NCBI GenBank assembly: GCA_963762145.1
Contig: CAVXJS010000021.1
Span: forward strand, 288,001-352,000
Direction of reading: 5' to 3'
DNA length: 64,000 nt
Source of the DNA: an uncultured Candidatus Rokubacteria bacterium
Lineage (GTDB): Bacteria > Methylomirabilota > Methylomirabilia > Rokubacteriales > CSP1-6
The notes under the pieces are model-generated. The model worked only from the letters and a program-made list of their open reading frames with translations. It ran no database searches and was not told the DNA's origin. Position numbers and translations under genes: made by a program. Positions 11,873 through 35,851 of this stretch are shown piece after piece. Each line of letters starts with the position of its first letter. Position 1 is the first letter of the stretch.

Positions 11873-12367
11873 CTACCCCGCCGCGGCAGCCGCCTTCTTG
11901 CGCCGGCCCTTGGCTGCGCCCGCGGAGGCCTCACCCTTGCCGGCCTTCTTGTCTTCCTTGGGCGCCTTCTCGGCCTTGGCGTCCTTCTTCCCCTTCTCCT
12001 TGGGCTCTTCGGGCCGATCCACCAGCTCCAGCACCACCATCTGCGCGCGATCGCCGGGCCGCAGGCCCGCCTTCATGATGCGCGTGTAGCCGCCGTGCCG
12101 CTCGCTGAAGCGGGCCGCGATCGTGTCGAAGAGCTTCTTCACCACGACCGCGTCCGGCACCATGCTCAGCACCTGCCGGCGCGCGTGCAGGTCGTCGCGC
12201 TTGGCGAGGGTCACCATGTGGTCGGCGAGGCCGCGGACCGCCTTGGCCTTGGCCTCGGTGGTCATGATGCGCTCGTGCCGGAAGAGGGCGACGAGCAGGT
12301 TCCGGAACAGCGCCCAGCGGTGAGCGGTGACCCGCCCGAGCTTGAAGCCCGCCTTGCCGTGCCTCAT
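11873..12367 (-). CDS. rplQ: 50S ribosomal protein L17 with Lys/Ala-rich C-terminal tail
   Basis: [25 protein letters not shown]. Confidence 0.97.
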
Positions 12368-13350
12368 TTCGTCCCTCCGCGGCCGATCGCGCCCAGCAGA
12401 TTCGGATCGATGCGCATGCCGAGCGACAGTCCAAGCGCCGCGAGCGCGATCTTGATCTCCTCGATCGACTTGGAGCCGAGGTTCTTGACCGACTCGAGAT
12501 CCTCGTCGGTCTTCTGGACCAGGTCCGCGACCATCAGGATCTCGTGGTTCTTCAGCGCGTTGATCGCCCGCGCGGGGAGCGGCAGCTCCTCGAGCGGCTT
12601 GGAGAGGCTCTCCTGCAGGAAGCCCTCGCCGGTGGCCTCCACCTCTTCCTCCTCCTCCTCGCGCCCCTCGGGAGCCAGGTGAGAGAAGTGCGACTGTAGG
12701 TGCCGCGCCGCCCGCGACAGCGCGTCGTCGGGAGATACCGCTCCGTTGGTCCAGATCTCGAGGATGAGCTTCTCGTAGTCGGTGACCTTGCCGAGCCGCG
12801 CGTTCTCCACCCCGTAGGCCACGCGCTGGATCGGCGAGAAGGCCGAGTCTAGCGCGATCGCGCCGTCGGGCACGGTTCCCGCGAGATGCCGGTCGGCCGC
12901 CACGTAGCCGCGGCCCGCTCCGATTCCGAGGTCAATCGCGAGACTGGCGCCCGCGGCCAGCGTCGCGATGTGGATCTCCGGGTTCAGCACCTCGACGCCG
13001 CTCGCCTCCGATACGTCGGCCCCGGTGACCTGCTTGGGCCCGGTCGCCTCCAGCCGGGTCTCGGTCGGCTCGCCGGAGGGAACGCTCACCGCCAGCTTCT
13101 TCACGTTCAGCAGCACGTCGGTCGTGTCTTCCTGCACGCCGGGGATCTGGGTCCCCATGTCCTTCACCCCCGGGATCCGAACCCACGACACCGCCGAGCC
13201 CGGCACGATGGCCAGGAGGGTGCGGCGCAGGGAATGCCCGACGGTGAGGGCGTAACCCTTCTCGAACGGCTCGGCTACCAGCCGCCCGTAGCGATCGGAG
13301 AGAATCTCCCACTGGATCGACTTCGGCTTCTGAAACGGCGTTCTGGCCAT
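12364..13350 (-). CDS. rpoA: RNA polymerase alpha subunit (divergent)
   Basis: Position between rpsD and rplQ; SLRRTLL, GRGYV, FSPI, TDYEKL, alpha-CTD NLGSKS; ATG at 13350. Confidence 0.92.
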
Positions 13351-13378
13351 ATGCCCCTTCTGGCGGCGAGTCCGCCGC

Positions 13379-14002
13379 CTACTTCGAGAACAACTCGACG
13401 ATGAGCTGCTCCTGCACCGGGATCTGGATGTCCTCCCGCAGCGGAAGCCCACGCACCGTGCCCTTCTTCTCGTTGATGTCCAGGTCCAGCCACGGCGGTA
13501 CCGGCGAGCGCCCCGCCCCGAGGTTGTCGGCGACCCGCTCCTGCATCTTCGAGGTCGTCCGCAGCTGGACCACCTCACCCACCTTGACGATGAAGGACGG
13601 GATCGACACCTTCCGCCCGTTCACCTGGATGTGGCCGTGGCCGATCATCTGCCGGGCCTCCCGGCGGGACGCGGCCATCCCGAGGCGGAACACCACGTTG
13701 TCGAGACGTCGCTCGAGGAACTTGAGCAGGTTCTCACCGGTGATGCCCTTCTCGGCTTCGGCCCACGCGAAGTAGCGGCGGAACTGGGCCTCCAGCACGC
13801 CGTAGATGCGCTTGGCCTTCTGCTTCTCCCGGAGCTGGATGCCGTACTGCGTCGGCTTCGTGCGCCCCAGGCCGTGCTGGCCGGGCGGATAGTTCCTCCG
13901 CTCGATCGCGCACTTGTCGGTGAAGCAGCGAGAGCCCTTCAGGAACAGCTTGATGCCTTCACGCCGGCACTGCCGGCAAACGGCGGCTCGATATCGTGCC
14001 AC
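13379..14002 (-). CDS. rpsD: 30S ribosomal protein S4 (zinc-binding type)
   Basis: [23 protein letters not shown]. Confidence 0.97.
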
Positions 14003-14014
14003 TTACGTCTCCTC

Positions 14015-14443
14015 CTACACGCGTCGCCGCTTGGGCGGCCGGCAGCCGTTGTGCGGAATCGGGGTCACGTCACGGATGGCGGTGATCTCCAGGCCCACCG
14101 CCTGGAGCGAGCGGATGGCCGCCTCGCGCCCGGCTCCCGGGCCGCGCACGAACACCTCCACCTGCTTGAGGCCCACTTCCATCGCCTTGCGGGCCGCGTT
14201 CTCGGCCGCGGTCTGGGCCGCGAAGGGCGTGCTCTTGCGGGAGCCCTTGAAGCCCACGCTGCCCGCGCTCGCCCACGAGACCACGTTGCCCATCTTGTCG
14301 GTCAGGGTCACGATCGTGTTGTTGAAGGTGGCCTGCACGTGGGCGATGCCCACGCGGACCTCCTTGCGCTCCCGCTTGCGCCCGCCCTTCCGGGGCGCAA
14401 CCGAGGCTTTCTCGTCCGGCTTCTGTTCCGCGGCGTCGGCCAT
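14015..14443 (-). CDS. rpsK: 30S ribosomal protein S11
   Basis: [30 protein letters not shown]. Confidence 0.97.

Positions 14444-31648: not shown

Positions 31649-35851
<4,203 letters not shown>

Follow-up and report, generated by a model that had tools for sequence, protein, structure and literature searches.

A divergent operon rpoA and its paralog in a Rokubacteriales-like order: a candidate oriented RNA polymerase alpha heterodimer

Bacterial RNA polymerase (RNAP) is taught as alpha2-beta-beta'. The window analysed here, a 64,000-nucleotide stretch of the genome of an uncultured Candidatus Rokubacteria bacterium (contig CAVXJS010000021.1 of assembly GCA_963762145.1), carries an rpoA gene whose altered N-terminal motifs lead one to ask whether its product still supplies both alphas of the enzyme or has become one half of an unlike pair. 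Our analysis finds a second rpoA elsewhere in the same genome, traces the pair across the order and shows that the two copies have lost different conserved positions. We consider it likely, at a probability of roughly 70%, that the two products form an oriented alpha heterodimer in which the window copy (type B) would lie on the beta' side and the second copy (type A) would complete the pair. This reading draws on anatomy, distribution and analogy; the genes, synteny, phylogeny, selection and site loss were computed, and from them we infer the dimer, its orientation and the roles of the C-terminal domains (CTDs).

The two rpoA loci of one genome

The features of the window gene on which the argument depends are as follows, with residues numbered in the window protein unless E. 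coli is named.

12364..13350, minus strand: operon-type rpoA paralog (type B), 328 amino acids (aa), from its open reading frame (ORF), TIGR02027, Pfam and its place in clade B of the trees; candidate beta'-side (alphaII-like) alpha
12685..13272, minus strand: alpha N-terminal assembly domain (NTD; dimerisation plus insert), residues 27-222, from PF01193 (residues 27-222) and PF01000 (57-172)
13147..13170, minus strand: degenerate loop GVKDMGTQ, residues 61-68 (E. coli 63-70), within the beta-protected 65-75, by alignment
12766..12798, minus strand: retained loop, residues 185-195 (E. coli 191-201), in or beside the beta'-protected 195-210, by alignment
12439..12615, minus strand: divergent alpha CTD, from PF03118 (residues 246-304, 68 bits)

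The frame runs intact from an ATG at 13350 to a TGA at 12364-12366 on the minus strand, and its product scores 292.1 bits on TIGR02027 (cut-off 227.8) and contains all three alpha domains (PF01193, 6.2e-21; PF01000, 8.3e-21; PF03118, 5.7e-19). The initial annotation of this stretch had described an intact ORF with its CTD and with the arginines equivalent to E. coli R45 and R191 in place, and the 328 aa frame, the PF03118 match and the alignment bear this out. By fold and score the predicted protein is an alpha, though not a complete one.

Residue numbers from here on are those of E. coli K-12 rpoA (locus L088), assigned by alignment. Where single-copy relatives have the consensus GVLHEFST (positions 63-70) the window copy reads GVKDMGTQ, at 47-50 it reads LLAI where the consensus is LLSS, and positions 32-41 are altered as well. 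The conserved beta-side loop G-V-x-H-E-(F/Y)-S (E. coli 63-69) is therefore missing from the window copy, which has GVKDMGT in its place. The third motif (191-201) keeps R191, G193, T196, D197, Y198, K200 and L201, and these are 0.89-1.00 conserved among operon-type copies (R191, G193, D197 and Y198 at 1.00, T196 at 0.89 and K200 at 0.96 of the type B rows of the alignment). The earlier claim that the normally near-invariant NTD motifs are altered thus holds for the first two (63-70, and 32-41 with 47-50) and fails for the third, which is largely kept. Across the alignment H, E, F and S at 66-69 occur in 0.04-0.11 of B rows against 0.97-1.00 of A rows. The divergence of the window rpoA is real and lineage-wide, neither chance nor private to one genome.

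A second rpoA had been predicted to lie elsewhere in the genome, and a TIGR02027 profile search of the window's own assembly (G000; 25 contigs, 88% complete, 5.4% estimated contamination) located it at G000:C15:390789-391671. It is read in two frames, covering model positions 1-85 and 83-297, and is flanked by a comEC-like gene (metallo-beta-lactamase fold) on one side and mltG on the other. This copy carries GVLHEFSH and LLSS but is without the R-V-G-Q-x-T-D-Y-D-K-L loop, and within the one genome A and B are approximately 40% identical.

Sites lost by each paralog

The losses of the two paralogs were compared at NTD positions conserved at a frequency of at least 0.75 (n=108) in a reference set of 22 single-copy sequences, made up of the E. 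coli sequence, 8 from other phyla and 13 from the class but outside the order, of which 12 are single-copy loci and one is the operon copy in genome G074. The positions fall into the following classes.

Kept in both paralogs: 44 positions
Lost in both: 12 positions
Mixed: 31 positions
Lost in B only: 12 positions (25, 50, 66, 67, 68, 69, 81, 112, 118, 154, 156, 223)
Lost in A only: 9 positions (17, 28, 43, 86, 191, 193, 196, 197, 198)

In E. coli, hydroxyl-radical footprints show that beta protects alpha residues 30-55 and 65-75 and beta' protects 175-185 and 195-210, and mutants assign R45 to beta and K86, V173 and insertions at 180 and 200 to beta' (PMC3294249, section 10). Five of the B-only losses lie within the beta segments (30-55, 65-75) and none within the beta' set, against one and four respectively of the A-only losses (the beta' set here being K86 and 195-210; Fisher test of 5/0 against 1/4, p = 0.048). 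Type B has lost S50 and the H66-E-F-S69 loop and retains K86 and R191-G-x-x-TDY-x-K200, and type A shows the reverse. The A rows also have a gap of about 4 residues in the 191-201 loop, and 30/30 of them have R at position 200, where 0.96 of B rows still have K. As judged from these alignments, each lost loop is unconstrained inside its own clade: consensus frequency averages 0.48 over 63-70 for type B (0.93 for type A) and 0.62 over 189-200 for type A (0.84 for type B). The proposal that the window copy is specialised for the beta' side gains support from this pattern, with the 65-69 loop and S50 lost, K86, K200 and 191-198 kept, and the A copy as its apparent mirror image. Changes in the dimer helix of B (F35Y, V46T in 0.57 of rows and S50I in 0.57) were also considered as heterodimer-specific packing, and this idea was dropped as the changes are lineage-variable.

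Reciprocal loss of docking surfaces makes an oriented A-B heterodimer the most likely arrangement. In the history that we propose, rpoA would have been duplicated once, at the root of the Rokubacteriales-like order (Methylomirabilota) or close to it, to give the A and B pair, after which both copies would have evolved fast with each shedding a different docking surface. Type A would have given up the loop on the beta' side and held on to its beta-side determinants, and type B would have done the converse, with the loop on the beta side gone and the beta' determinants kept. The A-B heterodimer would then be the platform for a single beta and a single beta', A serving as alphaI (beta side) and B as alphaII (beta' side), and regulatory contacts would be made chiefly through the CTD of A.

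The same genes could instead supply two alternative polymerases, A-A and B-B homodimers sharing beta and beta' and serving different conditions through different regulatory CTDs. R45 and most dimer-helix residues are kept in both A and B, as this would lead one to expect, and an alpha1 homodimer of Francisella has weak activity (PMC3294249, abstract). Any homodimer would however have to offer docking sites to beta and beta' alike, and in each paralog one of the two determinant loops is gone and its positions are no longer under constraint. We regard two alternative enzymes as unlikely, and the CTDs, which bear on them further, are considered below.

Distribution, origin and competing explanations

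The distribution of the pair was assessed with TIGR02027 in 170 genomes of the phylum with a completeness of 85% or more, where matches are not to be equated with copy numbers. At least two matches were found in 106/124 genomes of the window's order (90/107 in family f1, 14/15 in f4, 1/1 in f5 and the window's own genome) against 5/46 in other orders of the class, G074 alone being inspected among these five; the remaining 18 genomes of the order had fewer than two. Five unpublished genomes (G073, G066, G172, G171, G092) are included in this tally, and without them the figures are 105/121 and 5/44. The retention of both A and B almost everywhere in the order is what mutual dependence would lead us to expect. 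Scores on the profile separate the types, with full-length single-copy rpoA of other orders at 375-407 bits, type A at 313-335 and type B at 276-298.

Each type has its own conserved surroundings. All 28 of the 28 B-type loci sit between rpsD and rplQ, and these comprise 17 full-length copies (324-328 aa), 10 short ones (237-255 aa) and the operon copy of G025. A comEC-like and/or mltG match lies near 27/30 A-type loci in the DNA examined, the others being L006 and L022, which are short or contig-end stretches, and L010. The neighbours of the window copy, together with the genes for the large subunits, are listed below.

11873..12367, minus strand: rplQ (L17), its ATG overlapping the rpoA stop (ATGA); ORF, with synteny kept in relatives
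13379..14002, minus strand: rpsD (S4), upstream neighbour of rpoA; ORF
14015..14443, minus strand: rpsK (S11), operon context; ORF
31775..35749 (G000:C21:319775-323749), minus strand: rpoC, sole copy in the genome, 1829.7 bits
35895..39845 (G000:C21:323895-327845), minus strand: rpoB, sole copy in the genome, 1891.5 bits

The cluster runs rpsM-rpsK-rpsD-rpoA-rplQ, an order typical of bacterial alpha genes. An AAGGGG Shine-Dalgarno sequence precedes the rpoA ATG in the 28-nucleotide rpsD-rpoA spacer, most of which (13351-13378, minus strand) is taken up by a GC-rich inverted repeat, GGCGGCG ... CGCCGCC, that may be an attenuator or a processing hairpin inside the operon. Both rpoB and rpoC are far over their profile cut-offs with one copy each in the genome, and the initial annotation had called them largely canonical; its description of them as adjacent does not stand, since they lie 18-26 kb from rpoA within the window and do not directly adjoin it. 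Two public records, L054 and L061, are titled Candidatus Dormiibacterota and Nitrosotalea sp., and their rpoA operon proteins are 88-90% identical to those of the window and fall inside the window genus clade; the organism labels of these records look wrong.

A draft genome with 5.4% estimated contamination could in principle owe its second rpoA to a contaminant or a chimeric contig, which would leave the window copy as a fast-evolving single alpha, and another bin of the set (G033) does carry a seemingly foreign rpoA fragment. A and B are nonetheless found on one contig in four assemblies (G013, G036, G038, G040), which excludes a binning artefact; each type keeps its own synteny, the two phylogenies mirror each other and A and B are each other's closest relatives. 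Contamination as the source of the pair was rejected on the shared contigs, the synteny and the trees, and an artefact is in our estimation very improbable. The G033 fragment itself (locus L098, G033:C358:1-2500) is a canonical-looking rpoA with GVLHEFST beside rplQ at a contig end, 41-43% identical to A and B alike, and is probably contamination of that bin. The gene rpoA is a common single-copy marker in genome-quality and phylogenomic marker sets. To the extent that it is used in this way, two genuine copies in the order would inflate contamination estimates and a wrong choice of paralog would distort trees.

The origin of the pair was addressed with a main tree of 50 rows (IQ-TREE, LG+C20 PMSF) from which one long outgroup row and redundant rows were excluded. 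The A and B clades join at 99/99, with stem lengths of 0.29 for the joint stem, 0.44 for A (100/100) and 0.30 for B (100/99), and the family-level branching within the A clade is mirrored in the B clade. A quick tree of 80 rows agrees with this result. Derived residues common to A and B (W16, F31, A36, W58, F228) argue that the join is not merely long-branch attraction. These trees point to a lineage-specific duplication with both branches accelerated, subject to a caveat from the approximately unbiased (AU) test (p = 0.055) that we take up below.

Additional A-type copies occur in genus g20 of the same family (G108, G114, G118; loci L091-L097), with two or three per genome. They share 68-75% identity with the A copy of G013, every one of them retains VLHEFSH and has lost the 190-200 loop, and just one adjoins mltG/comEC. 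These may be exchangeable beta-side alphas. In G074, a genome of another order, an extra rpoA of 355 aa (locus L077, 4046..5113, minus strand) keeps PHEF and LLSS and has lost the RVGQxTDY loop. The genome also has a fully canonical operon rpoA, and the extra gene is found 3 kb downstream of that one, within a small duplicate cluster whose other members are rplF-like, rpsK-like and EF-G-like; its long branch found no placement in the trees.

For 15 pairs within the genus the ratio of nonsynonymous to synonymous substitution rates (dN/dS) lies at 0.108-0.180 in A and 0.077-0.183 in B, and over all 45 pairs it is 0.108-0.318 for A and 0.077-0.463 for B, with dS close to saturation at the far end. 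Taken by themselves, ratios of this size indicate that purifying selection acts on both copies.

The broken frame of the A copy in the window's genome bears on a further explanation, that one paralog is the sole working alpha and the other has been repurposed, for example as a DNA-binding regulator or an assembly factor, or is being lost. The A copy on C15 has one extra base relative to two relatives (alignment column 339), which shifts its frame. However, the 3.25 kb around it (G000:C15:389920-393171, locus L003) contain 6 private one-base indels, this one included, spread across three genes and with mltG broken into three frames, whereas the 3.9 kb around the window rpoA contain no one-base indel private to G000. 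Comparison with G013 over 38 kb gave 45 one-base indel differences, 33 of them in 18.4 kb near the C15 locus and 12 in 20 kb near the operon. On these counts, uneven as they are between the two regions, the frameshift is probably a consensus error of the assembly, and the A-type loci of relatives are single open frames of 330-339 aa in 30/30 cases. A lone alpha with a discarded partner would also fit the loss of the operon copy's CTD in two families and the fact that A and B both score well under normal rpoA on TIGR02027. With purifying selection on both copies, and with the full determinant set of a lone alpha kept in neither, we judge this explanation quite unlikely.

The CTDs of the two types have diverged in different ways. 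PF03118 gives 68 bits for the CTD of the window copy against 92.5 bits for the C15 copy, and the A CTD is canonical and nearly invariant across the clade. Where B has a CTD it keeps R265, N268, K271, G296, K298 and S299 and has E261 as P, V264 as A, C269 as A and K291 as S. In families f3 and f4 the operon rpoA (loci L044-L051, L053, L085) is only 237-255 aa long, covers model positions of about 2-220 at about 194-221 bits and stops just ahead of rplQ with the CTD gone; since rplQ lies within a few tens of bases of the short gene, the CTD is truly absent and not merely frameshifted. Divergence of the B CTD here and its disposal in two sister families suggest that regulatory contacts would be made mainly via the canonical CTD of A, and the f3/f4 polymerases would have one alphaCTD each if the heterodimer model holds.

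It is here that separate A-A and B-B enzymes meet their second difficulty, as the B-B form in f3/f4 would have no alphaCTD whatever. The difference between the CTDs, with B lacking E261, C269 and K291 and A canonical, is what such enzymes would need, and the two or three A-type copies of some genera hint at exchangeable alphas; near-universal retention of both genes in the order fits mutual dependence better. The oriented A-B heterodimer thus remains the reading that we prefer.

Several points weigh against it. R45, critical to beta binding in E. coli, stands at 1.00 in both A and B. The site counts behind the Fisher test are small and sites of one loop are not independent of each other, and the assignment of the loops to beta and beta' is based on E. 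coli footprints and mutants as quoted in PMC3294249. In the AU test a clade of all operon copies without A was disfavoured and formally not rejected (lnL difference 29, p = 0.055), which leaves room for an older or foreign origin of A. Finally, if the one-nucleotide insertion on C15 is real, then A is a pseudogene in this genome and B must act alone.

Comparison with known alpha pairs

To our knowledge Francisella is the sole bacterial case with experimental proof of two unlike alphas. Its alpha1 and alpha2 were shown to form a dimer in vitro (PMC3294249; Mukhamedyarov et al. 2011), and according to the inference drawn in PMC3294249 alpha1 takes beta and alpha2 takes beta'. In the available part of supplement 1 of that paper alpha1, the operon copy with RR at 44-45, retains VLHEYST and has a degenerate 190-200 loop with a five-residue gap, and alpha2, with KQ at 44-45, reads KVTSLED but retains RVGRRTDLDKL. 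The Francisella chains of PDB 6wmp are named 'alpha 1' and 'alpha 2', and in a phmmer search against PDB chains A scored 180 bits on alpha1 and 122 on alpha2 and B scored 125.5 on alpha2 and 111 on alpha1.

Both systems have a pair of divergent paralogs that arose by duplication within the lineage and evolved fast on each branch, a single beta and a single beta', and the HE(F/Y)S loop together with a degenerate gapped 190-200 loop in one copy and the reverse in the other. They differ in that the operon copy is the beta-side alpha1 in Francisella and alpha2-like here, and in that alpha2 has Gln at the R45 site whereas both copies keep R45 here. The duplication described here is also independent, in another phylum and wide across a whole order, and the heterodimer that was demonstrated by experiment in Francisella is in this case proposed from sequence. 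From its genes this is an unlike-alpha pair of the Francisella type in a different phylum, and we found no paper on it: literature searches for Rokubacteria with rpoA returned nothing, and those for rpoA duplication, paralogs, second copies and heterodimers returned Francisella and plastid work only. The accessible portion of a 2026 review of alpha-like subunits (PMC13374769) makes no mention of Francisella, Chloroflexus or Methylomirabilota, and the accessible portions of PMC7588896 and PMC9304144 contain no statement of which Francisella alpha faces beta'.

Chloroflexus, which belongs to yet another phylum, has the same layout as the window's order in that its operon copy is the alpha2-like one. 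In the available part of supplement 1 of PMC3294249 the operon copy has GVYQETDV together with RIGQATDYDRL, and the copy outside the operon has GVIHEFSS together with a degenerate 190-200 loop. The discussion of that paper considers the Chloroflexus copies as possibly still equivalent with no drastic substitutions accumulated; in contrast, the pair as given in that part of the supplement shows reciprocal loop loss as in Francisella. The same two loops would then appear to have been lost reciprocally in three separate duplications, in the Rokubacteriales-like order, in Francisella and in Chloroflexus.

An independent case that is order-wide and shows the same reciprocal loop losses would provide a rule that can be read from sequence, and a natural experiment that assigns alpha surfaces to beta or to beta'. 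The number of alphaCTDs needed per polymerase is informed too, as two sister families would have one. A broader claim, which we put forward tentatively and at slightly under an even chance, is that a whole order of abundant soil bacteria uses an obligate oriented alpha heterodimer, independent of that in Francisella, whose beta'-side alpha is shedding its regulatory tail (divergent in the window family and gone in two others). If true, alpha subfunctionalisation would, with Francisella and Chloroflexus, become predictable from sequence, and alternative polymerases may be formed by exchange of beta-side alphas in the genera that carry two or three A-type copies.

Further afield, the alpha-like heterodimers of archaea (Rpo3/Rpo11) and eukaryotes (RPB3/RPB11 and AC40/AC19) likewise provide an asymmetric platform that came from duplication of an alpha-like subunit with one member reduced, to be compared with the NTD-only operon alpha of f3/f4. 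Those pairs represent a far older and deeper split and need extra small subunits (PMC3294249, discussion), and the comparison is one of analogy only. In that sense the pair described here would, if the broader claim is true, be a bacterial replay of the route to the asymmetric platform of the archaeal and eukaryotic Rpb3/Rpb11 type.

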